Shown here piece after piece: positions 34,201-58,200 of a DNA stretch of 64,000 nt. The stretch comes from Podarcis bocagei. Taxonomy: Eukaryota. Position 1 is the stretch's first letter. Every line of letters begins with the position of its first letter. The translations under genes and the position numbers were made by a program. The stretch is taken from the NCBI GenBank assembly GCA_964188305.1, contig OZ076892.1; one strand, written 5' to 3'. The notes beneath the pieces are model-generated. The model was not told the origin of the DNA. It did no database searches and saw nothing but the letters and a program-made list of their open reading frames with translations.

Positions 34201-37200
34201 TGTGAACCAGCTTCAGGAGGAGCTGCAAGGCTCCTCTGTTCCCAAAGCCCAGCCGAACATGAACCTGGGCATCAAGACTCAGCCTCGCTTTGGCAACTGG
34301 CCGTGATAAATGTAGCAAACCAGGGCAGACCTCGCTATCCCATTGCAGGCACTCCTACCTTTTCACCCTGCATGTATGAGGCTCTTACCGGATCCGGGCC
34401 GCCACATCTCGTGGTGTGTCCACCTCATCTGGAAACATCTCCTCCTGCCGCTCCTGCCTGTACTTCTCCAGAATTGCCTCGTTGTCCTCCATCTTCTCAT
34501 CGTCCAGGAGGGTCATGTCTGGACCCTCCTCTTCCTCTGTGGCCTCTTCATCCTCCTCCTCCTCCTCTTCACTGCCACTCCCATCCTAGCATACGAAAAA
34601 GCAACCCACATGGGGTTGTGAGAGACAAGAGAGAAAGTGTTTGAAGAAAGAAACCTTTTAAAGGAAAAAGGCACCATGTCTACGTAATTGGTATACTACT
34701 ACTTGAAGAATGACACGAAATGAAAAATAAAATAAAATACTAGGCTGGCAGTCAAGACAGACACTCATGGCTTGCCATCTCTCTTTGCTATGCTCTTATA
34801 ACCATGTTCTTCTTTATGGATCACAGAAGATCCACAGCTGAGTGGAAGACGATCTGCCTTGCAAGCAACAGGTCCCACATTCAATTCCTGATGGCATGTC
34901 CAGGTAGGGCTAGGAGAGCTCTGCCAGTCAGAGCAGACAATATCGAGCAATATCGAGCAATGGTCTGACTCTGCATATGGCGGCTTCCTATCCCCCTCCC
35001 CGAATTCTGACCTCTCAGTGCTATGCACCCACAATGCCGCTCTTCATTCCACCATCAGCAGGGGTCCACTAATCTATCTCACCACCAAAACATGTTCCTG
35101 GCTCTCAAGAGAGGATGCCAAGCAGGAGATGACTCCTTCTGCTGGGTCCCGCTAGCTCCAAGGTTCAAGCCTCTCTCCAGCAGTTTCCTACTTTCTTCCT
35201 AACACAAATCAAGTAAGAGATTCCCTTTGCCTCTCCACCCCACCCTTTGAACACATGCCAAAAGACTTTGACAGAATTGGCAGCAAGCACAGAGTCCAGC
35301 TAGTAAGCCAAGCCAACATTTTAGGGTTCCTGCACATCAAGTCCCCCGCTTCTTGCACCCAGCTGTTCCTGAACAGTCCAGAATACCTACAATGAACCCA
35401 TTCTCCCCCGCCCTCCTCCTTCCCCACTTGTCCACCAGATGTCCGGCGACACCTTCCTGCTGTGCACTAACCCCAATCCCATTACCTGGGAGATGGGCTC
35501 TTCCACCATATTCTCTTCCTTGTCTTCCTCCTCATCATCCTCCTCACTGCCACTCTCCAATTCGTCATTGTTGTCCAGGATCCAGGCAGCCTGGTAGGCA
35601 GATGTGCCTTTGGGGACACTCTTGGTCATCTTCTTCCTCTGTGCCAGGGACTCTGGAAGTGCAAGCGCAGTTAGCCAGCATGAGAGAGAGAGAGAGAGAG
35701 AAAGCGCTCACCGCTCCTCATCTGGCCAAACTGAAGCAGTTACAGCAAAGGCTGCTTTACAGCACCAGGAAAGTGAAGCTGAACTATTTAAAAGAACACA
35801 CTGCTTGTGCTTTTACACACTACCATTAAAAAGCGATAAAACGATTTGCTATACCAAAAACTATAAACCTACCCAGACATTTAAAAAGCTAGCTCAAGCT
35901 GCAATCTGTTTTTTGTATATTGTTATTTAGACTTTCTGAATGTCTCAAATAATTCTTGATGATTTTTCTTAGTGATAATTCTATTGGGTTTACAAAAAAA
36001 AAATCACTTTGAGGGTTTTTCTTTTTACAATCAAGCAGTGTACAGTAGTGCCCCGCAAGACGAATGCCTCGCAAGACAAAAAACTCGCTAGACGAAAGGT
36101 TTTTTCGTCCGCGATTTGCCTCGCAAGACGAATTCCCCTATGGGCTTGCTTCGCAAGACGAAAGCCCATAGGGAAATCTCCGGGGACCTCTTTTAAATGC
36201 TAGCGGTGGGGAGCAAAGCCTTTCCCCCCCCCTCCGGCCTTCAGAAGAGGTCCAGGAAGGCTGGCGGGGGCCAAAAGGCTTTGCTCCCCAGCGCCAGCAT
36301 TTTAAAAGCAGTCCGGCATAGCAGGGAAGCGCTTCCTGCTATCCCGGACGGCTTTTGAAGGCAGGAGAGATCCGCGAAGCCTGGGCGCGCTGCGCGCAGG
36401 CTTCGGCATGCCGGCAAGTCTCCGCCAGCAGCGGCAGAGCTGCCGCTGCTGGCAGAGAGATCCGCGAAGCCTGGGCGCGCTGCGCGCAGGCTTCGGCATG
36501 CCGGCAAGTCTCCACCAGCAGCGGCAACGCTGCCGCTGCTGGGGGAGAGATCTGCGAAGCCTGGGCGCGCTGCGCGCAGGCTTCTGCATGCCGGCAAGTC
36601 TCCGCCAGCAGCGGCAACGCTGCCGCTGCTGGGGGAGAGATCTGCGAAGCCTGGGCATGCCGGCAAGTCTCCGCCAGCAGCGGCAACGCTGCCGCTGCTG
36701 GGGGAGAGATCTGGGAGGCCTGGGCGCGCTGCGCGCAGGCTTCGGCATGCCGGCAAGTCTCCGCCAGCAGCGGCAACGCTGCCGCTGCTGGGGGAGAGAT
36801 CTGCGAAGCCTGGGCATGCCGGCAAGTCTCCGCCAGCAGCGGCAACGCTGCCGCTGCTGGGGGAGAGATCTGCGAGGCCTGGGCGCGCTGCGCGCAGGCT
36901 TCGGCATGCCGGCAAGTCTCCGCCAGCAGCGGCAACGCTGCCGCTGCTGGGGGAGAGATCTGCGAAGCCTGGGCATGCCGGCAAGTCTCCGCCAGCAGCG
37001 GCAACGCTGCCGCTGCTGGGGGAGAGATCTGCGAGGCCTGGGCGCGCTGCGCGCAGGCTTCGGCATGCCGGCAAGTCTCCGCCAGCAGCGGCAACGCTGC
37101 CGCTGCTGGGGGAGAGATCTGCGAAGCCTGGGCATGCCGGCAAGTCTCCGCCAGCAGCGGCAACGCTGCCGCTGCTGGGGGAGAGATCTGCGAAGCCTGG

Positions 37201-40200
37201 GCATGCCGGCAAGTCTCCGCCAGCAGCGGCAACGCTGCCGCTGCTGGGGGAGAGATCTGCGAGGCCTGGGCGCGCTGCGCGCAGGCTTCGGCATGCCGGC
37301 AAGTCTCCGCCAGCAGCGGCAACGCTGCCGCTGCTGGGGGAGAGATCTGCGAGGCCTGGGCGCGCTGCGCGCAGGCTTCGGCATGCCGGCAAGTCTCCGC
37401 CAGCAGCGGCAACGCTGCCGCTGCTGGGGGAGAGATCTGCGAAGCCTGGGCATGCCGGCAAGTCTCCGCCAGCAGCGGCAACGCTGCCGCTGCTGGGGGA
37501 GAGATCTGCGAGGCCTGGGCGCGCTGCGCGCAGGCTTCGGCATGCCGGCAAGTCTCCGCCAGCAGCGGCAACGCTGCCGCTGCTGGGGGAGAGATCTGCG
37601 AGGCCTGGGCGCCCTGCTGCCCCACCTGGCCCCGCCGCCCCACTTCGGAAAGGTGTTCCGAAGTGGGGCGCGGGGGCGGGGACACCTGGCCCCGCTGCCC
37701 CACTTCAGAAAGCTGTTCCGAAGTGGGGCGGGGGGGCAGGGACACCTGGCCCCGCCGCCCCACTTTGGAAAGGTGTTCCGAAGTGGGGCGCGGGGGCGGG
37801 GACACCTGGCCCCGCCGCCCCACTTCAGAAAGCTGTTCCGAAGTGGGGCGGGGGGGGCAGGGACACCTGGCCCCGCCGCCCCACTTTGGAAAGGTGTTCC
37901 GAAGTGGGGCGCGGGGGCGGGGACACCTGGCCCCGCCGCCCCACTTCAGAAAGCTGTTCCGAAGTGGGGCGGGGGGGCAGGGACACCTTCTGAAGGCGGG
38001 CAGGGGGCGAAAGTCTTTGTCCCCCCTGCCTGCCTTCCCAGGGGCTTTTAAATCGCCCCGGACAGCGGAGAAGTCCTCCGCTGTCCGGAGCGATTTTAAA
38101 ATGCCGCCCGCCAGCATTTTAAGATCGCCCCGCACAGCGGAGAAGTCCTCCGCTGTCCCAGGGTTTTTTAAAATGCTGGGGGTGGGAAGAAAAGCCCTTG
38201 TCCCCCCCCCCCAGCCTTCAGAAGAGGTCCGGGGACAGACTGTCCCCGGACCTGGCCTGAAGGTGGTTTCCCTAGGAACGCATTAATTGATTTTCAATGC
38301 ATTCCTATGGGAAACCGTGCATCGCAAGACGAAAAACCCGCAAGACGAAGAGAATTGCGGAACGAATTAATTTCGTCTTGCGAGGCACCACTGTATAATG
38401 TTAATGAAATATATAACTTAACAGGGAAGCAGCGTTTGAAGCCCAACCCAGACCATAATGAGCCTGAAAGAGAAGGAGAGCCTCAGCCCGGCCCACGTGC
38501 AAAGCGACATCCTTCAAGACAGCTGGTCTAAAGGAAGAGGCAGGTAGGATGGACAAGGCTCAGACTGACCCTCAGCCTCTTTCAGCTCCTCCTCGGTGGG
38601 CCAGGTCTGCTCTCCATCCATGGGGTCAGGGGTCACTTCTGACTGCAGAGACTCTTGCTTGCTGGCATCAGCCTTGCTGAGCACCTTCACGTCTTCCTCC
38701 ATCTCCTCTTCTCTCCTGACAAGGTCATCCTAGAAACCGGGGAGAGAAGTTCAAGCATGGCCACCTGGGGGCAAAGGAGATGCTTTCTCCCCCACCCCCA
38801 CAAGCATTTGCTGCCTCCTCCTACCTTCCAGTTCCTGCCCCCCCCCCTACCAGCCAGGCAAAAGAACCTACCTGGTCCCCCATGCTCCTTGGGTTTATTT
38901 TTGCAGTTCTGGAGTTTAGAGCAAAGGGCTCTGGGGAGGCATCCACCTGACTCATCTGGAAGTCCCCGTGTCCCACAATATGCACCAAGCTGTTCACGTT
39001 CAGGCTCCGTCCCCTGACGTAGCCAGACACCTTCAGGGTCCCCACCAAGGCGCTGTCTGTGCTGGGCACGAAAGTGGCGGCAGTGGCCAGCAGGTGAGCC
39101 CGGCGGTCTCGGAAGGCCAGGTGCCGCTGCTTCTGGCTGGCCAGGTGCTGCAGCAGCAGGGCGGACTCCTGCTCTGTGTCGAGGGGGAAGAGCCTGTCTT
39201 CAGGGAACCTCTTCTCGATGGCTTTGTTCAGCTTCTTGCGACAGTCAATCTGCTTCTTTAGCGGTTGGTCAGAAAGACCTTGAACAGCAAGGCCTGCAGG
39301 TGACAAACGGGAGAGAAGCATCAACGGCTGGGTAGGCTTTAATGTCTGCTTACAGGCAGCTGTGAAGCTCAGGGGACCCCCCAAGGCAGCGTGGACCAAA
39401 TCCTCTAGATGCCAGCAAGGTATCCCTGAGATGAAGAGTCTCAGGTACCTTCATCTCAGGGTTGGGGGTTCAAGCCCCACATTCAGCAAAAAGTTTCCTG
39501 CATTGCAGGGGATTGGACCTGATAATCCTTGGGGTCCTTTCCAACTCTACAATTCTACAAACATAAGCAGCCTTGCAGCACTGACTGGAAGCCCACTGCC
39601 CATCCCTTCCATAAGTTGGTATAAGTTCAACAACACAGGGTGAGGCATAGTGGATCAGATCGAAAATTTGTCTCATCCGCCATCCCATTTCCAATTCAGG
39701 CCTGCCAAATGTCTCTTGATAAACAGGCACGACAGCCCTGCCCTGTTTGTGTACAATATCTGTGGCTTGGGGGGAGACTGTTAATTAACATGGTTGCTCA
39801 ATTTAGCTCTCACAGGCAGCAGCTGTGAAAGATCTGTCCCTCTTTGTGAATTGGTTTAATCCCTTTTAATATGAGACCTGATGGGCAGCTCTCTCTGGCC
39901 TCTGCCACCAGCCACAGGATCAAGGGCCCCCTCCCCTGCCTCCCAGGAAGAACACGATGGCAAGGAGATCAGTCCGGCCCCATCCATCAGCCAAAGGAAC
40001 ATGAGCTGCAAGCTTACACCCGCCTTCCCAGCCAGAAATAACACTTGGCTCTGACTGTCATTTGCCCCAAGGGAGAGGAAAGAACCTTCTGGCCCCACCC
40101 TTTGGCCAAAGAGAAAAGAGCCACAATCCACTGTTCAGACAAGAACATCAGCAAGGGAGGATCAGCATTGCCTAAACTGAATGTAAATGCTTGTAACTTA

Positions 40201-42378
40201 GCACTTCATTCTGACCTTGAAGGACTGTTTCCTGTCCCTTTTCCTGCCACTCCCTAAGTTTACATGTTGCATTTTTAGTTTATATGCCTGTTGGCATAGC
40301 CTGCCTGCCTGCCTCTAACTTGAGCCGCTTTGTCTGTAAATCAGGATAAAAAGAACAGTAAATCCCCCTGTGTCTTAACTGGAGGTTACCTGGCTCCCTC
40401 ACACAGTCTATAATTCAGATGGTCTTCCTAGTTATGCAGTTTGGTCTCCCCACTTCAAACCCTGGCATCCAAACACTGTTCTGCTAGTAGGGATTCGGTA
40501 AAGGAAGAGCCCCCTCCTGCTAGCACAGCAGCTTTTGACACTGTTCTCACCATAGCTGGGGAGGCCCTGTGCAAAGATGCAGGAAAGGCAGTAGTCTCCA
40601 GCGGCATCCCAGCCCTCGTGAGGATCCAGCACAAAAAGGAGGGTGTCTGCAACCTTGGCCAGGTCCAGCACAGCATGGAGGTTCCCTGGGTGATAAGAAA
40701 GGCGCAGGTGAAGGTGGAGCCTGGCGTGTTGCAACAACAGTGTCTCAGTAGGCCAAGGTGCCCCTACCTGTGTCAGCCACCACAAAGCGCCACCGGAGTC
40801 TGGATTGGTGGCACAGCAGGCCAAAACCTGGTGGCCCCATCTTGGTTTGGCACACGGTAGAAGCTGCACTGCTCTGAAACAGGCTCAAGGCTCTTGGGAT
40901 AGCGACGCCAGCATGCAGCGGGACTACCACCACCAAGTGGGGTGGCCCATCCTTGCGACCCAAGTTCCGCTTTTCTTCCAACACCTGTGACCAAGAGAAA
41001 GCAAACATAGGCCCTTTCATGGAGGAGAGGACTATTGATGGCCACTAAGCACAACGACTATGCTCTGCCGTCAGAGGCAGCAATGCTGCTGAACGCCAGC
41101 TGCTGGAAACTGCAGGAGAGGAGAGGACACTTTTGTTTGAATCCTGCTTGCAGGTTTCCCATAGGCATCTGGAATAGATGGCCTCCTTTGGCCTGATCCA
41201 GCAGATGCCCTTCTTATGTTTTTCTCCCTCCCCTGTAGAAGCAGGAAGAGGCTTGCCCTCCACCCCACCAGCTTCTCACTGACTCACCATCTCCCTGCAC
41301 TGCCGGCGGAGCTGCCAGGCCCGATGCTTGCGGTCCAATTTGGCCAAATTGCGGTGCCGCTGCTGGCTGAGTGTCTTAGCAGGGACCCGGCCTAAGGAAA
41401 GGGCGGAGAGAGAAGAGAAAAAGCTCTCAATGCGTACGGTGCTACGCTATACATAACAGAATTCAGAGGAAGACATGGAGTTAGGGGAACTGTTTAAATA
41501 CTGCTCTTGAGCATATGCACCCACGCTGCTGAGCCAAGCTTATCCTTATGACTCATTGCCCACCAATCATTTGATTTGGTCTATTTATTTATTTATTTAA
41601 TCAAATTGATATATCGCTTGATTGAATAAAACCTCAAAGCAGTTTACAATATGAATAAAGCGAGAATTTTTTTCTGTAAAAACAATCAAAACGTTCCAAA
41701 AACAATTTAAAAAAGCTATAAACTAAAAACACACCAGCGTTCTAGATAACTGGGTATTTAAGCAAAAATGTTTTTAGCAGGTGCTGAAAAGAGTGCAGTG
41801 AAGGCGCCTGCCCGGTATCAATAGGCGGGGAGTTCCAAAGCTCAGGCGCTGCCACAGGGGAAGATCAATTTCTTACAGCTGCAGAAAGAAGCGCTATGTG
41901 GCACCTGTAATCCTGCCAATTCCGCTGATCGGAGTGGTTTCAAGAGGGCGTACATGTGGTAAAAGGGGGTCTCGCCGCTAAAGTTCTCTGGCACAGCCAT
42001 CGGCAGCATCCAGGCTCTGCCTGTCTCGGAAGAGCCCCCCCCCCCCGAGGGACCAGCTGAAGCAGGAATAAGCAAACTCGGCCCTTTAGATGTTTTGGGA
42101 CTACAACTCCCATCATCCCTAGCTAACAGGACCAGTGGTGAGGGATGGTGGGAATTGTAGTCTCGAATCATCTGGCGGGCCGAGTTTGCCTATGCCTGAG
42201 CTGAAGGATGCCATCGACTTCACGCAGGACAGGACTGCGTATACATGTACAGACGGGCCTCCTCACCGCCCTGCTTCTTCGCGCTGCTCCCGCTGTGCCT
42301 CCCGCTCTTGTGCGGTTTGTTCTGCTGCTTCAGGGCCCCGGCCCGGTGGGCCCCGCCGCCTCCGCTCTTCCTCGCCAT
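25278..42378 (-). CDS. TSR1: Pre-rRNA-processing protein TSR1 homolog, 15 coding exons, 809 aa
   Basis: Exons (high to low): 42378-42267, 41391-41288, 40984-40768, 40685-40551, 39293-38872, 38729-38570, 35652-35486, 34585-34389, 34117-33958, 29676-29566, 28802-28670, 27577-27461, 26519-26379, 25653-25579, 25456-25278 (TAG). They sum to 2430 nt with consistent phases. Motifs: [63 protein letters not shown]. Confidence 0.96.
28860..29500 (-). pseudogene. SNORD91: Degenerate SNORD91-family C/D snoRNA in TSR1 intron 10, apparently interrupted by a CR1 fragment
   Basis: Minus-strand AATGTCTGAACCTG-T-CTAA (29479-29461) has 14-nt complementarity to 28S rRNA CAGGUUCAGACAUU followed by a D'-like box. 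The C-box position reads CCGACGG (29497-29491). A putative 3' half lies at 28907-28860. Human TSR1 hosts SNORD91A/B. Confidence 0.6.
28908..29458 (-). mobile_element. 5'-truncated CR1 LINE fragment
   Basis: Squamate CR1 3'-end motif (GCTGGACCAGATGGGCC...GGCCTGATCC...TTCTTA) and ORF2 C-terminal remnants (GGGCAACCAAAATGATCAAGGG). Confidence 0.75.
30334..31749. mobile_element. Non-autonomous hAT (Charlie-like) element with CpG-rich interior
   Basis: TIR CAGTGTTTCCCAACC / GGTTGGGAAACACTG; perfect 8-bp TSD CTCTAAGG. Confidence 0.9.
31928..32259. mobile_element. hAT-type MITE (copy 2, same family, internally shorter)
   Basis: Same TIRs as 6238-6705; 8-bp TSD AACTAGCC. Confidence 0.9.
36360..37610. 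repeat. GC-rich minisatellite of 90-bp and 69-bp units (15 units plus a partial one)
   Basis: Unit order [15 protein letters not shown]. Each unit has the hairpin CCAGCAGCGGCA-ACGC-TGCCGCTGCTGG. Confidence 0.95.
37620..37988. repeat. 60/61-bp palindromic minisatellite, about 6 copies
   Basis: GACACCTGGCCCCGCCGCCCCACTTCGGAA-AGGTG-TTCCGAAGTGGGGCG..., with alternating AGGTG/AGCTG variants. Confidence 0.93.
41020..41220 (+). mobile_element. CR1 LINE 3' fragment
   Basis: ATGGAGGAGAGGACTATTGATGGC...GGCCTGATCCAGCAG...TTCTTATGTT. Confidence 0.65.
42063..42198. mobile_element. Short palindromic hAT MITE in TSR1 intron 1 (related copies about 43827-43950 and 60056-60191)
   Basis: Long inverted arms; 8-bp TSD AGCTGAAG. 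Confidence 0.85.
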
Positions 42379-43250: not shown

Positions 43251-46200
43251 GTTGCAGGAGGTTGGACTAGATGATCCTCGGGACCTTGCCAACTCCTACC
43301 ATGCTGTGATCGGCCCATCTTGCTCAGTGCTTTCTACAGGGCCAGTGGTTCCCAAACATTAAACCACAGAGACGAGGACTTGCATATCAGAAGGTCGGCG
43401 GTTCGAATCCCCACAAAGGGGTGAGCTACCGTTGCTCGTCCCTGCTCCTGCCAGCCTAACAGTTCAAAAGCAGGTCAAGTGCAAGTAGATAAACAGGTAC
43501 CACTCCAGCTGGAAGGTAAACGGCGTTTCCGTGCGCTGCTCTGGTTCGCCAGAAGGGGCTTAGTCATGCTGACCACATGAAGCTGTACGCCGGCTCCCTC
43601 GGCCAATATAGCAAAATGAGCGCCGCAACCCCAGAGTCAGCCACGACTGGACCTAATGGTCAGGGGTCCCTTTACCTTACCACCATAAACTCGTCCCCGT
43701 GCCCCCCATTATTCAGAATATTGCATGCCTCACTGAGGAAGATAACGCCACAAAATTTAAAATAGTAACAACTGATTGCATATTAATTCAAAACCCAGTT
43801 AAAACTGCTTAGTTTAATTAATTCGGCCTTTCTCAAAGTTGGATCCCCAGGTGTTGGAATACAACTCCCATCACACCTCACTACCAGGGCCAGTGATCGG
43901 GGTGATGGGATTTGTAGTCCAACAACATCTGGGGAGCCAAGTTTGAGAGAGGATGAATTAATTCAACAAAATGTGACCCAGTGGCTTCAGCTTGTCAAAA
44001 TCTGTTAGTCATTTACTCTACCAACAGCCACCTGCCACGCCGCTTAGTGCCTCCCACTAGGAATTTCTCTGCCCTGTTACGGTAAAATCCGGGTGCGTGA
44101 GGGCACAGCCACCCAGCTCGTCGGACAAAGTCCGCGGGTCCTAGCGGAGAAGAAAGGAGCTCAGCCGGACACAGGAGCAAAGTACGAAGATCCGAGTTTA
44201 TTGCGCAACAGGTTCAAAATGGCATTGAACCCCGAGTATGGGGTGACATAGACTTTTAAAAGTTCCCTCCATAACCCAGAATACAGTGCAGGAAACGTCA
44301 TGAATACATTATGGGAAGGTCATGTTTCGTGGATTACATCATGAATACATTTCACACGTCATGAATAGATTATGGAAGGGGTGGGATCACATTCATTAAC
44401 ATTTCAGATGAGGGAGGGGGAATATGCGGAGGGAGAAATATGCATAGATAAACATTTATCAAGTACCGGTGGTGGCAAGACAATGGGTCAGAGATATGCA
44501 TCGTCTGCCACTTAATATTGCCTAGAGGAAGGGTTTGGCGAAACGATCTGACAGGATTAGGAAGTTCCTGCGTACGTGACCCGCCGCTTTGGGGATTATG
44601 GAAGTAGGAACAACATCATGGAGTCCAGGGAGAGCTGAGTTGAATGACACCAAGAGTGAGGAAATCGGAGCTACGGTCGATTTTATATCAATTTTTAGAG
44701 ATTTCAAAGGTTTCCAGGCTATTCCGTACTGTAGAGTGAAAGGTAGAACAGAATGGATACATTTTGGCAGGCGGAAGCAGAATGGATACATTGTAACTAG
44801 ATTTTGACAGGTTTACGAGGTCCCTGGTTTCGGATCCATTGTTCTCACAGCGGGGGGCCGTCCGCAGCTTGTTAGGAGTGAAATGAGGCGTGCAGGAGCT
44901 CCTGGAGCTAGCTCTTTGCAGGACGAATGCATGGCTGTGATTGGCTAAAGCGCGGCCATAGGAATAAGTGGAGAAGAGAAACACTCGGTCTACTCGTTCT
45001 AAGTATGGGGCGCAGATAGGCATAGGAAAGATAGAGAATATATTTATAGATATTCGAGCTTATTTCGCTCGGGAAAGGGTCTGGGAAAAGTGTGGTGCTT
45101 GTGCAACGGTGAAGGGGTTTTGAGGGTGGGTGTGCGGTGGCACCCTCGAGGTCATCGCCTCGGTCAGTCAGGAAGAGGGGGAAAAAGGCACCCCCCCCCT
45201 CCTCAGTCCGTATCAGTCCCCCATTCGGAGATAGATTTGCATTAAAGTTCTGTAAGAACTTGCAAATCCTTTCTCCGCACCATTGGAGCACTAAATCTCG
45301 GTGATCTCATATTCCCCTTCTCCCAAATGTCTCATCTGTACGTAGTCTGGGAAGGTGGGAGCATGTCGGGAGCGGGAATAAGCTCGAAGAGGAAAGGAGC
45401 TAGTGGAGGCAGAATGACGGAGGAGAGAGCAGCAAGGGGTAATACAATGCATAGTACAACACAGGATGGAGACACAAAGGAAAACAGTTAAAATGGTAAA
45501 CAACACGACTTTCAATAGTTGCCTGAGCCATCCCAGCTTGGGCAACCATCCCCATAAGTCCACATCGGAGAGTCCCTCATGCTGGATGTCGTGAAGCTTC
45601 CCTGCTAGCTCATGAATGTTATTTAAATGCCCAGTTATGTTTAAGGTCTGATCAGTCACATATGTACAGCACTCTGTGCCTATTAATGCGCAGGTGCCTC
45701 CTTGACTGGACAAGAGGAAGTCTGTCGCGATTCTCGTTTGCAGGCTCAATTGTCTTACCTCGGATAGTTCCGACATTAGGGAGTCTGTGATCTGGGTTGC
45801 CTCTTGCATGAATTTGAGGAGGATATCGGTGAGTCGGAGAATATCCACGTGGTTTGAACCGGCACCGTAGGCGGGGAAAAGCGCTCGGCCCACGGTCTCT
45901 CCATTCGCAGCGGCGTCTGACAGGTCTGACAGCTCTTTCTGTTCCCTCTTATTTCTTTGTCTCCCGGGGGGTAGGTGTGGAAGTATCCTAATTCCGGGGA
46001 CAATGTAGCCGACGAAGCAGGATCCGGACATGTGTGGGCTCACCCATGTGTACGCGCGATGTCCGCATACCCAGAATAAGCCGCTGAGGTAAGACTCCAT
46101 TCTGCCTGAAGCAAAGGTTTGCAGCAGCATGGAGTCCGTGACTTGGGGCTTCCAGTCGGAGGGGTGTCCCACGACAGCGGCCCAGGCAGTGGTGAGGTTA

Positions 46201-49200
46201 GGGAAAGTCCGGGGACCCCTAGCGTTGATGATGGTGACTAGTCCAGTCGGTAGGATTTCTAGAGTGGAGGTACACGTACTGGACCCAATGAAGGTTCCTT
46301 CTCCGGAGAAGCGGCGGCAAAGGGGTCCCTTGGTAGGGCCTGTAAGGTAGAGGTACTGATGCGTCAAGTTGAGTGCGGTTAAATTCCAGGACGTAACGTT
46401 TCCAGAGCGAAATTGTTCCAAAGTCACTGGTACTGGGACAAGTGGGAGGCTCTGCTGGAGGTGACTGGGTGCGTGGGCACAGATCCAGCAGTCTGGGTAG
46501 GGTGCTTCTTTCGCCACCTGGCTGAGAAGTTTAATGTAGGAATTTTGCTCCCAGGAAGAAAGGAGGTCTTCTCCCGGGAGCGCAGAGTCTGTGCCGAATT
46601 GCCTAGGTGCTGTACCGACTGGATGGAGTGGGTCGGTGGTATTTAATAGTTGCCGGTCTCTGGCGATTCCGCCGCACCTCAGGGGTCCAGCGTGATCCCA
46701 GGAGGGGGGGCGTGAAGGGTGTATGGGATGGTGCCAACCCTCTAGATATTCGGCCCCTTTCCAATCACGGGTGTACCCAAGGTTCCATAAACAGCAGAAC
46801 CGCCGCAGGCAGAGACCTTGGAGTTGGGGTTTCCGGGTCTCTGGGGTGGAGAGGAGACACTGGAACCCGAAAATCAAGTTTCCAGAGGGGCGACTGGAGT
46901 CCGTGTAAGCGTGGGAGGCCCCTCCTATCTCGACTTCGGTCCAGTTCGGGCTTTGCGTGATTTCCCCGCCTTTGTATAGGAGATAAGTCCCGTTATGGCA
47001 AGTCAGGCGGTAGGAAGAATGGTCCAGAGTGAGGGCAGCAGACCCAATGCGGCGTAGGTCCTTGTTTCGGATGAAAAGTTCCCAGTATTCGTCATTGGTG
47101 AGTCGGGGTACTAGAGAGTGGCGCAGTAGGGTCCGAGACTCAGGAAGGCAGAAATCAAAGTCCCCCATTCGGTCAGGGTTAGATCTTCCCCCTGTTTCGA
47201 CCTCGTGATAATCCAAGAAGTGATAGTCAGTTTGTAGTCCTGTACAATGGTTTGATGAAGCAGACGTGGTCCTGAAGAAGGTGGCGAGGAGAAGGGCGGT
47301 GCAGGCAAAACCCATGGCAGGTGCGCGTGTAGGGAGAGAGGTAGTTCGGAAGTTGTAAACTGTCGACGGAACTGTCAGATGAGGTGGGATGGAGCGGTGA
47401 CGTAGGGAGCTGTCAGACGGAGCTGTCAGATAAGGCAAGATGGAGCGGTGACATAGAGAGCTGTCAAACGAAGCTGTCAGATGAGGCAGGATGGAGCGGT
47501 GACGTAGAGAGCTGTCAAACGAAGCTGTCAGATGAGGCAGGATGGAGCGGTGACGTAGAGAGCTGTCAAACGAAGCTGTCAGATGAGGCAGGATGGAGCG
47601 GTGACGTAGAGAGCTGTCAAATGGAGCTGTCAGATGAACTGTCAAGCGCGTTTGAGACGTAATTTGAGAGCGTCGGTGTCAGGGACGATCTCGGATGTCC
47701 AGTTGGATGTCGTGGCGACTGGTCCGGTCTGTTGAGCCCGATCTTGGCCCCGATCTGCTGGCCCGGTCTGTTGAGCCCGATCTTGGCCCCGATCTGCTGG
47801 TCCGGTCTGTTCTTCGTCGTCGTCGATGTACGAGGTCGGCGGTGTGGGAGGGGTCGAGAAAGTGAAGTCCTCGCCGGGGTTTTCCTCCGTCTGTTGAGGG
47901 GGTGGCGCGGGCTTACACCTGGTGTGATGGATCCACGAATTCTTCTCCCCTACTTTTACAGCGGTTGGTGATGTCAAGAGGATTTGGTAGGGGCCCTCCC
48001 AGGCGGGTTGAAGGGGTTCCTTTTGATAAACTTTGATGAGGATCCAGTCGCCGGGATCGAAGGAGTGGGCTTGCACGTCGATGGGCAGGTTCTGTCCTTC
48101 GATGGCCGCGTACTGGTGGAGGCGCTGTAGCTGCGTCTGGAGCTGAATGACATAGTTAGTGAGTTCTGCTTCTCCTAGTTCGAGCTCCGAAAGGGGAAAT
48201 AGAGTATTATAGACGGGAGGGGGTCTCCCAAATAGGAGTTCGTACGGAGACAGTCTCAAGGGTCCGGTAGGGGCACTCCGTATATTGTGGAGAACTAATG
48301 GGAGAGCATTTGTCCACTTTAGTCCAGTTAGCCTACAGAGTTTGCCAAGTTGTATTTTAATTTCTTGGTTCATGCGCTCTACTTGGCCCGAAGATTGTGG
48401 GTGATAGGGTGTATGAAGATCCCATTTTATTTGTAGAGCCTTTGCGACTAATTGTACTATTTGAGCCGTGAAATGGGTTCCCCTGTCGCTGTCTAGTCGG
48501 CGGGGAACCCCAAATCGGGGTATGATGTCCTGCAGAAGGGCTCTGGCTACTACAGAGGCAGTTGGCTTCCTACAGGGAAATCCTTCTACCCAGGAAGAGA
48601 GTTTGTCTATTATGATGAGGGCATGTTTGAAGCCTTGGCAGGGTGGCAGATCGATAAAATCTAGTTGCAGGCTTTCGAAAGGGACGAATGCCCATAGTCT
48701 GGCCCCTGGGGGTGCTCTGGGTTGTCGTTTGGGGTTGTAGGAACTACAGGTAATACAGTTCTTTGATGCTGTTGTGGCCGCGACTGCCAAGCCTGGTGCG
48801 TACCAGGATCTCTTAACATGTTCTATCAGTCTCCCCTTTCCCCAATGCGTTTGTTGATGGAGAACCCTCACCAATTTTGAAACCCATGTTTTTGGAAGGA
48901 CGGGCCTGCCATCAGGGAGGATCCAAATATCATTTTGTTGGACTGCACCCACTGAGCGCCAGAGAGTCTTTTCTTCCTCGGGGGCTTCTTTGTAAATCTG
49001 TGTGGGATCTATATTGAGTGGGATCTGTAGGGCTTGAAACTCTGATTCTTGGTTGGGGGGGCGGAGTGCGGCTGCTTGAGCCGCGTTATCGGCTCGTCTG
49101 TTGCCTCTTGAAACTGGGTCCCTGCCTCGGGTATGTGCTTTACAGTGAACGACTGCGATTGCATCGGGCATGTGGATGGCGGTCAGTAGCCTCTCCACTA

Positions 49201-52200
49201 GGGCAGCGTGTGAAATTTTAGAGCCTGCAGCTGTTAGGAAGCCCCTTTGTAGCCAGATTTGACCAGTGGTGTGGACTAATCCGAAACAATATTTGCTATC
49301 AGTGTAGATGGTGGCCCGCTTGCCCTCACTGAGTTCGCAGGCGCGTATGAGCGCTATCAATTCTGCAGCTTGGGCGCTATATTGTGGGTTGATCGGGTTG
49401 GATTCTAAGACTTCAAAGTCCGTAACCACAGCATACCCCGTCTTCCTCTCCCCTTCTACTACCCTGGAGCTGCCGTCTGTGTAGAGTACAAGGTCCGGGT
49501 TTTCCAAGGGTAGGTGATCGAGGTCTTCCCTGGGTTTCTCGGCTTGACGGACTATTGTGGCACAGTCGTGGTGTGGGGTCCCATCGTCGGGGAGGGGTAG
49601 AAGGGTGGCTGGGTTAAGGGAGTTGACTCTTTTTATGGTGACGTTTGATGGGGTTAGCAAGAGGGCTTCATACTTGTTTAGTCGGGAATTTGAAAAGTGA
49701 TGACAGCCTCGTAGAGTTAGGAGGGTGGAGACGGAGTGGGGAACATGAACAATGATTTCATGCCCCAAGACTGTTTCTTGAGCTTTTTCGAGGAGGGTTG
49801 CCGCGGCGGCTATAGCTCGCAGGCAGCTCACTGCCCCCTTTGCTGTATTGTCCAATTGTAGGCTGTAATATGCCACAGGTCTTTCTTTATCCCGGAAAGG
49901 TTGAGTCAGTACCCCTGAGGCTACCCCCATTTGCTCATGGATAAACAGGTTGAAGGGGATTCTGTAGTCGGGTAAGCCTAGCGCAGGGGCTGACCTTAGT
50001 TCCCGTTTCAATCGTTCAAATGATTTGTATGCTTCTTCTTCCCAAACTAAGGTGTCGGGGTGGTCTTGGCGGGTCATGGCAGACAGCGGTTTCGTTATTT
50101 CGCTGTAGCCTGCGATCCAGGCTCTACAGAAGCCTGCCATTCCTAGGAATCCTCGTAGTTGTCGCTTGGTTTTGGGAAGGGGGATTTTTGTAACGGCTTC
50201 TATTCTATCTGTTGCTAAGCTTCGGGTGCCCACCCCTAGGATGTGGCCAAGGTACTTTACTTCCTGCTTACAATATTGTAGCTTTTTTGGTGACACTTTG
50301 TGTCCCTTCCTGGCTAGTTCGGCAAGGAGGTGCTTGGTGTCTGTTTTGCACGCTTCCTCGCTGGTAGAACAAAGGAGCAGGTCATCTACATAAAGAAGGA
50401 GAGCAGAGCTGGCTGGGAGGTGTATATCTTGCAAATCTTGGTGTAGGATTGCTGAGAAGATTGCGGGTGACTCCACGTACCCCTGGGGCAACCTTGTCCA
50501 GGTTAATTGACTGGGTCCCCATGTGAAGGCGAAGAGGAATTGGCTAGCTGGATCTAATGGTATACTAAAGAAGGCGGAGCATAGATCTGCAGCGGTATAC
50601 CACTTGGTTTCTGCGGGTATGGCATTTAGGAGGGAGTTCGGGTTGCCCACTACTGGGTGACGGGGTATTACAAATTGATTTACTAATCTTAAATCCTGGA
50701 CGAAGCGATATCGGACTGGGGCTCCCTCGGCGGACGGTTTCTTTACTGGTAATACAGGTGTATTGCATGGGGATGCGCAAGGAACCAGGATCCCCTTTTC
50801 GAGAAAGTCTTCTATCATCGGGGTTAACCCCTCAATGGCCTCCTTGGGTAAGGGGTATTGTTTAGTACACGGGAAGGGTAGGTCAGTCCTATAGGTAATT
50901 TTTACCGGGACGGCCGATAGGAGGAGGCCTACTGAGGTTGACTCGGTGCCCCATAGAGAGGGGGGTAGATTGTCCTCCAGCTCGGGAGGGAGTTCGGGAA
51001 ACTGCCTATCTGTCTTCACTTCCTCCATCATTCCTTGAAATTCAGGGATTGAGTCTTCAGGCATATATAGGTAGATACCTTCTCGGGAGCATTTAATTGT
51101 TGCGTTTAGTTTGCAGAGTAAGTCTCTTCCGAGGAGATTCACCGGACTACTGGTTAAGAGGAAGGTATGCTCGGCGAGTAGAGGTCCGAGGGTAACTTTA
51201 GTTGGACGTGATAGGGGACATGTGCGGGGTATCCCATCCAGACCCATAACCTTTTTTGTTTCTGAACCTGGTTCCAGGTGACTGTCCGTTAAAGTGGAGT
51301 ATGTGGCCCCGGTGTCCAGTAGGCATTGATAAGGATGGCCATCTATCTCTATGGTGCAAAATGGGTCTTCGGAGGATAGCGTTAGGACTGGACAGATAGT
51401 TTGAGTTTGGTCGGGACCCCCTTCTGATTGTCAATACGTTTGTTGGTCGTCTGGAGGGGGTTGGTTAGGGGGGTGTAGAGGTGGAGCAGTGGCGTTTGCC
51501 CAAGGGTGGGTGGACGGAGTTATCGCCGGCATTTGTGTTCTCAGTCCCTGCGGGGGTGTTTGCGTTTTAGTAGGGACATTCGGGAGCGGTGGGTTGTAAG
51601 AGGCTGGGGCGGCTCGAGGGTTGTAGGGCACAGGAGGTTGGTTCTGGTACCCGTAGGTCGTGTTGGAATGTACTTCACGAGTCACATTGTTGAGGTAGGG
51701 ACAGAATCTTTTAATGTGTCCTTCCTCTTGGCAGTAAAAACACCCTCCTGCGGCTGGTCCCCATGGTCTATGAGGGTTCGGTGGTCCTCCTCCCCGGGCT
51801 CCCTTTCCTCGACTGAAACCCCTGCCCCTGCTGTAGTTTGGTTCCATGCTAAGGGCCAGGATCTGTTCCGTTTCGGGCTTGGGGTCTCTCTTCTTCCTCT
51901 CGTCTCGGGAGTTAAAGACGGATTTTGCGATGGAGAGGATTTCGCTAATACTCTTTCCATCATACCCTATTTGCAGGTTTAGGGCTTTTCTAATATCAGG
52001 GCAGGCTTGATCCTTGAAGAAGCCCTTCACAATGACCTCGTGTTGAGGATTATCTGGGTCGATCCCTCCCCAAGTCTTGATGGCTGATACTAGCCTGGTG
52101 TAATAGTCGGATGGGTGTTCATTGGCCCCTTGCAACACAGTTTGGACTTTAGTCCAGTTGACTGTACGCTGGCCAGCGGCCTTAATGCCGTCCAATATCG

Positions 52201-55200
52201 CCTTCTTGAATAAATCTAAGCACCATGTTCCGTCTGTGGTATTATAGTCCCAGGTTGGTTCGGTGCGTAGGCATTGGGCTGTGAGTGCCTCAACACCTCG
52301 TGGGCGTCCTGCCTGGTAGTTCGGGAGTTCGATTGCTTCCCCGGCCTTGGCTAAAATATCTGCCTTTTCGGCTTCGTTGAAAAGGGCATTTAGGAGAACA
52401 TGAACGTCTGGCCAAGTCGGCTTGTGGGTCGAAAAAATAGCGCTGACCTGACGGTGGCACTTATCCGGGTCATCTCTTAAAGATGGCATTTGATTCGACC
52501 AGGTTACCAGGTCTGCCGTATAAAATGGTTGGTGAGTGTACACCATCCGAGGAGGTCCATCCGGCTGGAGGGGTGGGATTGGCAGGGCCCTTAAGGGCAT
52601 CTGGACGGCTGCGGATTCCGTCTGTTTAGACGTCCCCGGGGTCTCTTTAAGTTTTTCTAAGAGGCTGGGGTCTCTCAAGGTGGCCTCTAGTATTTCTTTA
52701 GCTCGCTGATTCAGAGCTACAGGGTTTGAGCCTTCTGGGGTAGCGTTCTGAATCTCCTTAGCTCGCTGCCTGGTTATTCGTGGGCTCGTGCCCCCCCGTG
52801 CCCCTGGTTCCCGTGTGTCTTCATCGCTATCTGATTGACCCCCTGGGGCGGGTGGAATTGGTTGCCTATAGTAGAAGGGGATGAGCGCTTGTTCTATGGA
52901 GTCTTCTTCTCCAGGGTATCCCTCGTATGGGGGGGGCAAGGACGACCTTCCATGACTTAAGACGGGCAGCTGATAGGTCGTTGTTCCTTTGGTGCCTTGG
53001 AGCAGCCCTTTGACCGTCTCAAAGGTGGCCAGGTATTCCAATTGACGGGGCTTTTCCTCTAACAAATAATTTTTAAGATGTTGTAGACGGTCTTCGTTAA
53101 AGGAGCCACCCTTTGGCCAGCGTAACTCTGGTTTTGCAGAGGCAGTTCCGGCGGGCCAAGTGTCTCTACAGAGATCTTCTAACTTCTGTCTCGACAGCAA
53201 CTTATGCCCGGGAATAGATTTCCAATAGGAGATGACGAATTCGAGGGGGGAGTCGGGGTCCCTCTGGGATTCAGATGGCTTCCTTGAAGCCTTCCTCCCG
53301 GAGCGAGCCCGTTCATGCTTAGAGGCCTGGGTACCCATTTTATTCACGCGTGTCTAGACAGAAAGAGGGGAGAGAGGGGTCGGTAAGGATTGGTATACCT
53401 AGGGAATTGGTATGCCTAACGCTGGGGTTTATAGTAAAGCGGGGTCTCTAGCTGCTTGGCAACTTCCTTAGAGAAAGTTTTGAGAGCTCTATCTACCTGA
53501 TTCTTATGTTCCCTTTACAATTCTCTATTTCCTATAACCTGGGGTTTCCTTCCACTCTGCCGGTCCCGCCCAATTCCTCATGGGCTATCCCTCCTGGCAA
53601 CCTCCTACCTATCGTCACACTCTCAGGAAAAGGGGCCCTACTGGACGCTCGCGTAGTGCGATGCCAGATCGGGTGATCCCTGGATAGGTTCCGAACGGAA
53701 AATCCCCCTTGCTTTCGGAAGCGGACTCACGCACGATACACGTGTTACGTGGCCCGACCGGTGCGGCTGGGATTGATTGATAGGAAAGCAAGACCCCTTC
53801 CTGCCCCCTCCGTAAGGGCGCTCGGGAAGTTCGGAAAAGAACTCCAACCCCTTGCTTTCGACTGAGATGCCCGTTGCAGAGAGTCGGCTGTCTTTCCAAG
53901 CCGGGTCTCTCCGTCTTACTTTCGGACTCTCAATCGGTGCGGCTGGCTGGAGAGTTTGAGGAGAAAGAGATAGAGCTCAGAACCCCCCTTTCGGGTCGAG
54001 CGGCAGTCCACGGTCTCTCTCACCACTTGGACCAAGATACAGGCGAGAAGGAGCGATAGAGAGGAGGGCAGAGAATTCAGTTGCCAGGAGATTCCACCCC
54101 CTTCCCACCAGTGCACTGGATTTCCTTTTCCTATACTCACGTGTCTTCTACGATGATCCCGGGATCGGTGAGCAAGCCGGCTGGATCCCTCTTTGCTCCC
54201 CGACTGAACTCTGGGACTTCAGATTACCGCCCGGAAGATGGCCGGAGGTCCAAAGGATCTTCCCGGGCAAAATGGCCCGGTGCCGGCTGAAGATTTCGGG
54301 GCCCCCGGTCAGCAACACGGGAGAACGCTTCAGGTCCCTGCTTGGGCGCCAAATGTTACGGTAAAATCCGGGTGCGTGAGGGCACAGCCACCCAGCTCGT
54401 CGGACAAAGTCCGCGGGTCCTAGCGGAGAAGAAAGGAGCTCAGCCGGACACAGGAGCAAAGTACGAAGATCCGAGTTTATTGCGCAACAGGTTCAAAATG
54501 GCATTGAACCCCGAGTATGGGGTGACATAGACTTTTAAAAGTTCCCTCCATAACCCAGAATACAGTGCAGGAAACGTCATGAATACATTATGGGAAGGTC
54601 ATGTTTCGTGGATTACATCATGAATACATTTCACACGTCATGAATAGATTATGGAAGGGGTGGGATCACATTCATTAACATTTCAGATGAGGGAGGGGGA
54701 ATATGCGGAGGGAGAAATATGCATAGATAAACATTTATCAAGTACCGGTGGTGGCAAGACAATGGGTCAGAGATATGCATCGTCTGCCACTTAATATTGC
54801 CTAGAGGAAGGGTTTGGCGAAACGATCTGACAGGATTAGGAAGTTCCTGCGTACGTGACCCGCCGCTTTGGGGATTATGGAAGTAGGAACAACATCATGG
54901 AGTCCAGGGAGAGCTGAGTTGAATGACACCAAGAGTGAGGAAATCGGAGCTACGGTCGATTTTATATCAATTTTTAGAGATTTCAAAGGTTTCCAGGCTA
55001 TTCCGTACTGTAGAGTGAAAGGTAGAACAGAATGGATACATTTTGGCAGGCGGAAGCAGAATGGATACATTGTAACTAGATTTTGACAGGTTTACGAGGT
55101 CCCTGGTTTCGGATCCATTGTTCTCACAGCGGGGGGCCGTCCGCAGCTTGTTAGGAGTGAAATGAGGCGTGCAGGAGCTCCTGGAGCTAGCTCTTTGCAG

Positions 55201-58200
55201 GACGAATGCATGGCTGTGATTGGCTAAAGCGCGGCCATAGGAATAAGTGGAGAAGAGAAACACTCGGTCTACTCGTTCTAAGTATGGGGCGCAGATAGGC
55301 ATAGGAAAGATAGAGAATATATTTATAGATATTCGAGCTTATTTCGCTCGGGAAAGGGTCTGGGAAAAGTGTGGTGCTTGTGCAACGGTGAAGGGGTTTT
55401 GAGGGTGGGTGTGCGGTGGCACCCTCGAGGTCATCGCCTCGGTCAGTCAGGAAGAGGGGGAAAAAGGCACCCCCCCCCTCCTCAGTCCGTATCAGCCCCC
55501 TCTGGGAAGCACTGGCCTACAGTGACTGAGAGGAGCATTCCAAGGTTTCAGACAGGGAGTCTCTCCCAAGCTGTACCTGGAGATCCCAGCAGGGATTGGA
55601 CCCAGGCCCTTCTTCAGGCAAAGCACATGCTTTACTTTTGAGCTACTGGCCTTCCCATTTTGCAGATTCAAGCACTATTGTAGCAGGAACAGAAGTTCCA
55701 ACAGAACGTGCACATGCCTGGCAACATCTTAAAAGTAGCTAAATGACATACATTCTTGGCGCCTTAGGTGAGCCTGTGTTTTAAAGCTAAACTAGATATG
55801 ATCCTCAGCAGCAGGATGAGGCTGGTAATGCAAAAAAATTATGTCCCTTATGAGAGCTTCCAGGCAGGTAAAGGAAATGGCATTGGCTGAGCCAGAATAT
55901 GCTCTGTAATATCCACTTTTTAAAGGCTTTTTTAGAAGGCTCATGATTGCTTTTAGAATTACTCCTGATTGCTTCAGCTCATAAAGAAGCATGATGTTGG
56001 GATAACTGTAGGCTTTCTTAAACAAAATGTAACTTGAAACCAACCTTGTAACCATTGACTTTGGTAAAAACCATGGAAAGTGGATCAAATTGGTTCAATG
56101 GGATGCTTGCAAGGAAGGTTCATCTGTCCAACAAGCTTTCAAAATGTTATGTTTAGTGTTACGTGCTGGAATTCAACACTTGTTTTTTCCCCTCCCCTTA
56201 ATCCAGGAAAAAATTAAAAAGCACTTCCAAGTATATATATCAGACTTTATTTCTAAACGGTGAAAACAGTGATATTAAGATTTGTGCTCTGGGAGAAGAA
56301 TGGAACTTGCACAAGATATACTTATGTCAGGTAAGAATAAAATATTTTTTTCCAGGCAGATCTTGGGCTCTAATTCTAAATACCTTTATTAGGGAGCAAG
56401 TCCCACTGAACTCCGTGGAACTTGTTTCTGAGTAAGCATGCAGGGGATAGTGCCGTTAGACACACTCTCCTTATCCCTTGCCTGCCGCTATGTCCAGAAT
56501 TCTCAAGAGCAGCAGTGAGGTGTACATTAATGGCTAACAAAGCATACTTTAGCTTAGCTTGAATAAATTAAACATAACATATTGTTTCCCTTGGAAAAGA
56601 TAAGGTTGTCAAAGGGAATATACTACTGTACAAATAGACTTTATTCTTTTGATCTCTCAGGTAAACTTCTGTGAGTGATAGCATCTCATAATGGGGTCAC
56701 CTCCTGCTGTGATGGAAAGTTCTAGTAGAGCAGTAATTTTCACTTCCTTGGATGGAAAACTAGCTATTTCTAGTTTTATATGAATTACATTTTAATGAAA
56801 AGGTATACTTACATGGTGTGTGTATGTGTGTGTTAATTTACCTACACCTAACTTTGTATGGATACGGCAATGTATGTATGTCTGTAGCATGAGACCACCC
56901 TTGTACATCTATTTGTATGTCTTGTATGTGGTTCCTTTTCCAGTACCCTTCTAAATTGCTGCCCATGGGAGTTTTTGTTCAAATTTCAGGCAGTATTCAA
57001 TATTATTGTAATTACTTCTTCCCCCTCTTGTTTTACAGTTGGTAGTTTAGGTTTGTTTGGATAAAACGATTCATAATCTTAGTTGTGTTTTCTCCAAACT
57101 TAGTTAAAACCAGTGTTTCATTACTCCTGAAACAGGAAGTTGTGACTTAATGGTGATGTACTAACCAGGAATGAAAGCCTTGTTTGATCCTGGTTTTTGT
57201 TCCTGAATCTATTTCAGAGATAATGGGAAACCATAGCTTGCTTTAACTAGGATCAAACACTAGAGTAGGTACATGGGGTGGTGGGTACTACATGGTCTGA
57301 ACACTCGTTTCTAGTGTCATAAACCATGGCACATAAAGTTGAGAGTGTTCAGACTGATACTTTAGAGATCAAACATGCTTGAAATAAAGGCTAATGAAGA
57401 ATTTGCTTGAAATTTATTAGGAATGGAAGAGATCTGCCATAATGCCTCCTGATATGGACATACAGCTTACTTTCTTTGTACCATATTAATTTGCATATAT
57501 TCTTACATTTTAAGCATTTGAATTAAATTCAGGGTCTTTTTTTGTAGTCTGGCTACTTTTCGAGTATGTTCAGCGGTTCTTGGAAGGAATCGGAAATGCA
57601 TACAATAGAATTGGAAATTCCTGATCAGAATATTGATGTAGAAGGTAAGCAAAGGATGATGTTCCTTTTTTACAGAAGACATGGGTACTTGTCAAGTCAG
57701 CTAAGATTTTTTATTATTATTATCAAAAGTTGTTTATTAAAACATTATTTGAATCACATTTACAGTTGGAAATTTGGGGAATGTGTTGGGAGAAGATTCT
57801 AGAGAACTCATTAGAAAATGGGTTTCTCCATTTGGGAGTAGTGTTAAAGAAAGTAGCCAGGCACCTTGGGACTTCTTTAAAACTTTTTATGTTGTCAGTG
57901 TGAAAAACACAAGATGAACTGACCCACTCCCACCAGAATTTTTATTACAAAAGAGCAGAGCATTTGAAAATCTGTTTTTTATTTGTTGATGTAGAAAACA
58001 GTTGTTTGCTAAAGTCTGCCTACTCTGTTCCAGTGACTTAAGAGTTACCCCTTAGTTTTAGGTTAGGTTGGCTATTATGGATCATTGGCGTAACGTAGGA
58101 TTTTATATTTGTCATGTTCCTGACCTGTCATAATAGCTGTTTCTGTTGAGCTGTTTGGCTTCTCAGCAGCTTTTCCCTGCTGCTTAATACTTCTTAATGC

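Follow-up and report, generated by a model that had tools for sequence, protein, structure and literature searches.

A UGA-CAA-UCA gag-pol junction in a young lacertid endogenous retrovirus: a candidate readthrough signal combining a tobamovirus-type hexamer with a predicted extended stem-loop

How does a lizard retrovirus make its Gag-Pol when gag and pro-pol lie in one frame, separated by a UGA that is followed directly by the hexamer CAA-UCA? The question is raised by a provirus in a stretch of 64,000 nucleotides of Podarcis bocagei (GenBank assembly GCA_964188305.1, contig OZ076892.1), which was analyzed as a whole and is called the window throughout. A first-pass annotation of its letters had proposed a purely sequence-based recoding signal, in place of the UAG and pseudoknot of murine leukemia virus (MLV).

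The provirus and its gag-pol junction

The element is an intact and very young class I provirus, as indicated by two LTRs (54354-55495 and 44075-45216) that are completely identical across 1142 nt, together with a 4-bp GGGC duplication. Its parts are the following:

54354..55494, minus strand: 5' LTR, about 1141 nt, TG...CA, same as the 3' LTR; 4-bp target-site duplication GGGC
54334..54351, minus strand: primer-binding site, which we take to be tRNA-Lys-like
51431..53338, minus strand: gag, 635 codons plus stop, with a Gag_p30 domain, one CCHC knuckle and a proline-rich tail with a Tyr end
51431..51433, minus strand: UGA stop of gag, the candidate readthrough codon; related Gags end at the same C-terminal position
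51425..51430, minus strand: CAA-UCA hexamer (+4..+9), which fits the type I CAR-YYA consensus
47642..51430, minus strand: pro-pol, 1262 codons in the gag frame, with protease (DTG at residue 39), RT, RNase H and integrase
45291..47315, minus strand: env, 674 aa from the first Met, with a TLV_coat match
44075..45215, minus strand: 3' LTR, with a G-rich polypurine tract just ahead

At the junction the minus strand reads ACG TAT TGA CAA TCA GAA GGG GGT CCC (51439 to 51413). The layout given in the first-pass annotation, i.e., gag, TGA, CAATCA and pol in one frame up to the end of integrase, was confirmed: the frame comprises 1898 codons between the gag ATG at 53338 and the pol stop at 47644-47642, with the TGA as the sole internal stop, Pfam matches to Gag_p30 lie upstream of it and those to RVP, RVT_1, RNase H, rve and MLVIN_C downstream (with TLV_coat in the third frame), and the protease motif LLDTGA is found 37 codons 3' of the TGA. 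The first Met of pro-pol is residue 62, past the catalytic Asp of the protease, so that a separately started Pol would be without that Asp. No in-frame Met was found ahead of this Asp between the junction and the protease, nor any slippery heptamer around the junction, which leaves readthrough as the simplest way to obtain Pol. Judging from the sequence, Gag-Pol is very probably made by readthrough of the UGA gag stop, in accord with the first-pass annotation; the hexamer is active after UGA in mammalian cells (PMC4132726, PMC3159437), and activity after UGA is described in PMC3542737 as well.

By local base composition, a CARYYA after a given stop is expected by chance in 1 in 215 to 1 in 327 cases; the pattern is matched by 9 of the 1898 in-frame dicodons and follows 11 of the 5235 stop triplets counted on both strands of the whole window. 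The match at the junction is unusual but post hoc, because several other leaky motifs would have drawn notice too. CARYYA is reportedly used for stop codon suppression in SIRE1, and fused reporters such as those of the OPRL1 type can overestimate readthrough. UGA-CARYYA in an OPRL1 reporter gave approximately 15% readthrough, with UGA equal to UAG and all six bases mattering (PMC4132726), while the addition of CARYYA on top of the stem-loop in a VEEV reporter raised readthrough from 7.6% to 10.1% (PMC3159437). In the literature searched, subscription papers apart, CARYYA was reported neither at a retroviral junction nor in any vertebrate virus; the motif is not mentioned in the accessible portions of PMC8672886, PMC12233894, and PMC11387191, and 12 of the 14 supplementary files of PMC10435555 contain no junction sequence.

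Several other features of the element and its surroundings were recorded. A consensus-like splice donor is present at 54140 (minus strand) in the 1-kb leader, with a second donor-like site at 53730, and a strong polypyrimidine acceptor at 53354 (minus strand) lies 16 nt ahead of the gag ATG; the donor at 54140 and this acceptor suggest a gag/gag-pol mRNA from which the leader has been spliced out. Between the pol stop and the env Met lies a tandem repeat of 51 nt (5.2 copies, 47372-47637), a 39-nt repeat (47719-47811) encodes a QQTGPADRGQDRA repeat at the integrase C-terminus, and the Pol of relatives has similar repeats. The provirus lies upstream of the host gene TSR1, about 1.7 kb from what appears to be its first coding exon (44075 vs. 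~42350), and is oriented like the gene, on which the 3' LTR could therefore have an effect. Pfam Tsr1 domains were detected at 40432-40884, 38821-39450, and 26050-26535, with a CpG island at ~42.0-43.5 kb. Between TSR1 exons, GC-rich tandem arrays (36360-37988; periods 159/90/69 and 60/120) are open in all six frames over 487-654 codons and give no Pfam match that exceeds the cut-off.

Relatives and conservation of the junction

The nearest Pol proteins belong to Podarcis and Zootoca (83-92% identity), followed by a second lacertid family (66-71%) and then by a turtle (53%). Single-protein scans of metagenome and viral contigs recovered no close relatives, and alignment scans of such contigs recovered distant ones only. 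In an RT tree of 54 rows, the window is grouped with lacertid rows only (95/90); it belongs neither to the starred 15-row group with the MLV-type rows (98/97) nor to the starred 7-row group (95/86) with L092 and L093, presumably WDSV-like and SSSV-like, respectively, and deeper forks lack resolution. By its RT sequence the element is placed outside the gammaretroviruses, and MLV, against which the first-pass annotation had set it, is thus the wrong baseline.

A panel of 99 junction loci was compiled. In 71 of them a stop is located at most 70 codons from the protease motif, and 43 have a long frame upstream; the latter show 14 distinct 9-mer contexts, three with UGA (L093, L064, and L031). UGA is not unusual among non-gamma retroviruses (these loci and PMC13517186 section 4.1.2). 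L031 is a class I element from a metagenome contig, and its junction reads UGA-CUA-G, a vertebrate cellular readthrough motif. Vertebrate-type retroviral sequence was also seen in contigs filed as bacterial genomes (L094-L098), where it is probably host DNA contamination.

On the protein sequences of relatives, the stop is a feature of the lineage, with its position kept. The Gags P0232, P0124, and P0128 (76-82% local identity) have the same end residue as the window, in DQ(E/D)(T/N)Y, and the tails of P0151, P0152, and P0214 (44-56% identity) are unalignable, yet have a Tyr at their end; P0175 also ends in Tyr in spite of such tails. The shared terminal Tyr would either serve cleavage by the protease or act on readthrough as 5' context. 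No fused Gag-Pol spanning the junction was found among relatives in protein searches with the stop read as X.

For the hexamer, inference in relatives was made from one gene model and by parsimony. P0135, a Podarcis lilfordi gene model, is read out of frame in its final 15 codons, which reveals the junction sequence. Only one register of the window accommodates it (1 of 11376 positions, allowing no more than a single change in any codon), and by this indirect reading the model implies NGA-YAA-YU(R), most simply CAA-YUA, with a Ser to Leu change that stays within the consensus. Third positions differ in 9 of the 12 preceding gag codons of this lineage, and 11 of its 22 residues past +12 differ from the window, so the hexamer is not carried simply by strong protein conservation. 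One related lizard lineage therefore appears to keep the CARYYA pattern. As to hexamer conservation, which the first-pass annotation had put forward as a check, this lineage is compatible with it by the indirect reading, and none of the 71 other junctions in the panel carries CARYYA.

Junction-covering contigs were available from four runs of four organisms, many at 83-91% identity, with 40 differences listed of 183. Among these 40, none falls in 51418-51441, while 51417, 51442, and 51449 differ; given how densely differences occur, 9 nt in a row free of them would be expected in about half of cases, which makes this a weak test of hexamer conservation. The listed differences seem biased towards high-share ones, and share depends on the contigs covering each part. 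A shortage of third-position differences in the 35 codons 3' of the stop (1/35 vs. 20/74, p 0.002, among the 40 listed of 183) was left unused.

Predicted structure downstream of the stop

In a pseudoknot scan at the junction, 20 of 40 shuffles were as good as the native sequence, i.e., none was detected, whereas the same scan recognized one in all six gamma-type controls (0-1 of 40 shuffles as good), in agreement with the first-pass statement that an MLV-type pseudoknot is lacking. The first 100 nt past the stop fold worse than shuffles (z +1.9). In the panel, L031 passed the scan (0/40 shuffles) and L094 nearly did (1/40). Published text on WDSV and SnRV likewise describes no pseudoknot (PMC3835772), and since an extended stem-loop is given for epsilonretroviruses in Table 5 of PMC3542737, the search was widened to long-range helices. 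The candidate obtained in the window consists of the following elements:

51422..51430, minus strand: spacer (+4..+12), 9 nt, from the stop to the predicted stem
51398..51421, minus strand: 5' arm of the predicted extended stem-loop (+13..+36)
51226..51251, minus strand: 3' arm of the predicted stem (+183..+208), over the protease codons VMGLDGIP, which we take to be the protease flap region; 146-nt loop

The predicted stem (-26.8 kcal/mol) is the main element of the centroid fold and has 22 pairs at p>0.5 when folded to +225; the probabilities of 0.75-0.98 obtained on folding to +230 are descriptive only, as this end was chosen after the helix was known and gives 7-14 pairs in five of the six gamma controls too. 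None of the 100 codon shuffles was as good. Synonymous recoding matched it in 6 of 300 cases, pseudo-stops did so in 4 of 178, and long-range controls in 1 of 91. The stem is thus predicted to be better than three controls at p ~0.02, in dependence on fold length: it is outcompeted by other pairing on folding to +300, a competitor being pairing with +245..+254, and has a probability of ~0.3 at +400. Whole-region MFE z-scores are unremarkable (+0.3 to +1.9, and -0.29). The 3' arm lies beyond the ~100-nt span that the first-pass annotation had proposed for examination.

Three of the 40 listed sequence differences (of 183) are located in the arms: 51417 keeps its pair (G-U to A-U), but with 51398 and 51251 combined the innermost pair is lost. 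Listed differences are no scarcer in the arms overall (3 in 50 nt vs. 24 in 329 nt, again among the 40 listed of 183). The residues of the related protein P0141 exclude 1 of 20 pairs, a modest result against nulls of 20/1889 and 425/5000 (8.5%). Three further observations were set aside: a shorter helix from the first fold (+16..+22 with +123..+129, z 0.29) is broken by the listed differences 51417, 51308, and 51311; the count of differences in the 3' arm (0/8 vs. 20/66, p 0.07, when +183 is left out; 1/9 when it is included) was given no weight; and a duplex of +10..+70 with the 5' leader (~53615; 1 of 20 controls as good) is gappy and driven by purine/pyrimidine content.

Comparable helices were predicted at six of nine other non-gamma junctions (L093, L002, L075, L094, L096, and L098; at most 1 of 100 synonymous recodings as good), where they start at +9..+13, and for L093, L094, L096, and L098 the Gly-rich protease segment on which the 3' arm ends is the one also used in the window. 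The synonymous null was not beaten in L092 (75/100 as good), L064, and L031, nor at any of the four gamma junctions (5-40/100 as good). This long-range helix of distant non-gamma class I junctions may be a stimulator of epsilon-like readthrough.

Readthrough systems and rival explanations

Type I signals, UAG-CAR-YYA, are used for the TMV replicase, the pomovirus coat protein and in the insect Providence virus (UAG-CAA-CUA; PMC3542737 Table 5, PMC3159437). The lizard junction resembles the tobamoviral ones in having CAR-YYA right after the stop and no compact pseudoknot, and differs from them in its UGA instead of UAG, its vertebrate host, its predicted long-range stem and its -1 base, which is U (UAU-UGA) instead of the conserved A of tobamoviruses. 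The closest overall layout is that of the benyvirus coat protein (UAG-CAA-UUA, a 9-nt spacer and a stem-loop; PMC3159437), although UAG and a compact hairpin with an 8-nt loop are found there, in contrast to UGA and a loop of 146 nt in the lizard element. In alphaviruses (type II; VEEV and SINV), UGA-C, a spacer of 8-12 nt, and a stem loop of 100-154 nt are all like those seen here, and the geometry of the 146-nt loop is close to that of SINV and VEEV (PMC3159437), but the triplet after the lizard stop is CAA and not CGG or CUA, so that only the +4 C is common, and the lizard stem is a predicted one.

Junctions of epsilon-related viruses include WDSV UAG, SSSV UGAAGA, ZFERV UGACGA, and RMEV UGAAGU, with SnRV also having gag-stop-pol (PMC13517186 section 4.1.2), and the stop at the XtERV-S junction is TGA (PMC8278194). 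They share with the lizard element gag and pol in the same frame, a stop at the end of NC and, in several, UGA; the distance from stop to protease motif is 37 codons in the lizard element and 38 in the WDSV-like L092. None of them has CARYYA, however, and the lizard RT forms its own lacertid clade and does not join the WDSV/SSSV-like loci. MoMLV (type III) likewise obtains Gag-Pol by suppression of an in-frame stop, but its RT clade is separate, its stop lies 25 codons ahead of the protease motif instead of 37, and its UAG-G, purine-rich 8-nt spacer, and H-type pseudoknot are all missing from the lizard element, where UGA-CAAUCAGA stands against the gammaretroviral UAG-G with its purine-rich spacer. 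By sequence, the junction falls outside canonical type I, having UGA and lacking the -1 A, outside type II, having CAA, and outside type III, lacking both UAG-G and a pseudoknot; with the stem as predicted the signal would be most like that of benyviruses (hexamer plus stem after 9 nt) or alphaviruses (UGA-C plus extended stem).

We tentatively favor a compound signal, made of the tobamovirus-type hexamer and an alphavirus-like extended stem-loop, as a plausible reading. It builds on features seen directly at the junction (the frame, the stop and its position, the hexamer and the absence of a pseudoknot) and adds the predicted stem; we infer from these both the readthrough and what each part would contribute. 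The UGA with CAA-UCA would provide a leaky local context in which termination is weakened inside the ribosome, while the 5' arm, 9 nt past the stop, would pair with protease-coding RNA about 150 nt onward, and this long-range stem at the mRNA entry channel would slow termination and raise readthrough, as in alphaviruses and probably benyviruses. A near-cognate tRNA would then sometimes be accepted at the UGA, giving Gag-Pol at a few percent. That the structure does the work by itself, in a type II-like manner with UGA-C and the extended stem-loop acting and the match at +5..+9 being coincidence or a by-product of the encoded residues, seems to us rather unlikely, even if local contexts vary freely among non-gamma retroviruses (14 9-mers at 43 loci) while a long-range helix recurs, and the chance of a post hoc CARYYA match per stop is as given above. 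The P0135 lineage speaks against it, as a residue changes there yet the consensus is still fitted amid highly diverged third positions of the tail, and with half of the residues past +12 replaced, protein conservation is no simple explanation for the hexamer. The first-pass proposal, a purely sequence-based type I signal for which 3' structure is unneeded, is doubtful given the extended stem-loop predicted from 9 nt past the stop, and we hold it to be unlikely. Type I motifs do act in mammals without downstream structure (PMC13517186 section 2.5), and the absence of a pseudoknot, the poor folding of the first 100 nt and the sensitivity of the long-range stem to fold length are all in its favor; set against these are the performance of the predicted stem over its three nulls, its counterparts in distant relatives, a stem start that fits the stimulator spacing of 8-12 nt (PMC3159437), and the use of CAA-UUA together with a required downstream element in benyviruses (PMC3159437). 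It is equally improbable, in our estimate, that the lacertid lineage converged on the plant-virus hexamer after UGA and retains it under selection, with the hexamer alone setting how much Gag is made relative to Gag-Pol and the stem dispensable.

Routes other than readthrough fare considerably worse. Pol might be translated from a spliced RNA lacking the stop, with gag joined in frame to pro-pol, as could be read from the automatic gene models of relatives (P0004, P0006, and P0140-P0143) that skip the stop into pre-protease residues, or be made in another way, the UGA junction of Tca2 being one that need not be a simple readthrough signal (PMC2194720). These models nevertheless use at least four different splice points, as predictors avoiding a stop would produce, no polypyrimidine acceptor pattern was found between the stop and the protease motif, the same-frame gag-stop-pol arrangement is the readthrough hallmark of gamma- and epsilonretroviruses (PMC13517186 section 4.1), and a separately initiated Pol would miss its catalytic Asp, so we consider such routes very unlikely. 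Hardly credible is the notion that the UGA arose in a fused gag-pol frame, as a nonsense change specific to this copy or through faulty assembly, or that it encodes selenocysteine: the six related Gags that end at the same point as the window or in the same Tyr largely refute it, the protein searches yielded no fused Gag-Pol across the junction, and no Rfam family, SECIS included, reached its gathering score within the window.

UGA junctions in non-gamma retroviruses were already known, and what appears new here, against the papers searched, is the CARYYA hexamer at such a junction. A 2026 review reports in its sections 2.1 and 4.1.2 that animal viruses have no type I contexts and calls the cis-signals of epsilon-like viruses unknown (PMC13517186), but the insect Providence virus is an exception among animal viruses (PMC3542737), and the claim is therefore limited to vertebrate viruses. 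For these the reviews record no such context, in line with the first-pass view that it is unusual for a vertebrate. With CAR-YYA at the junction of a vertebrate retrovirus that has been active recently, the range of type I signals would extend to vertebrate viruses. The predictions suggest a conserved structural module to which different local contexts can be joined (CAR-YYA in the lizard element, CUAG in L031, purine-rich ones elsewhere), and a long-range stem common to the lizard element and several fish-type junctions would offer a testable answer to how pseudoknot-free readthrough operates in non-gamma class I retroviruses.
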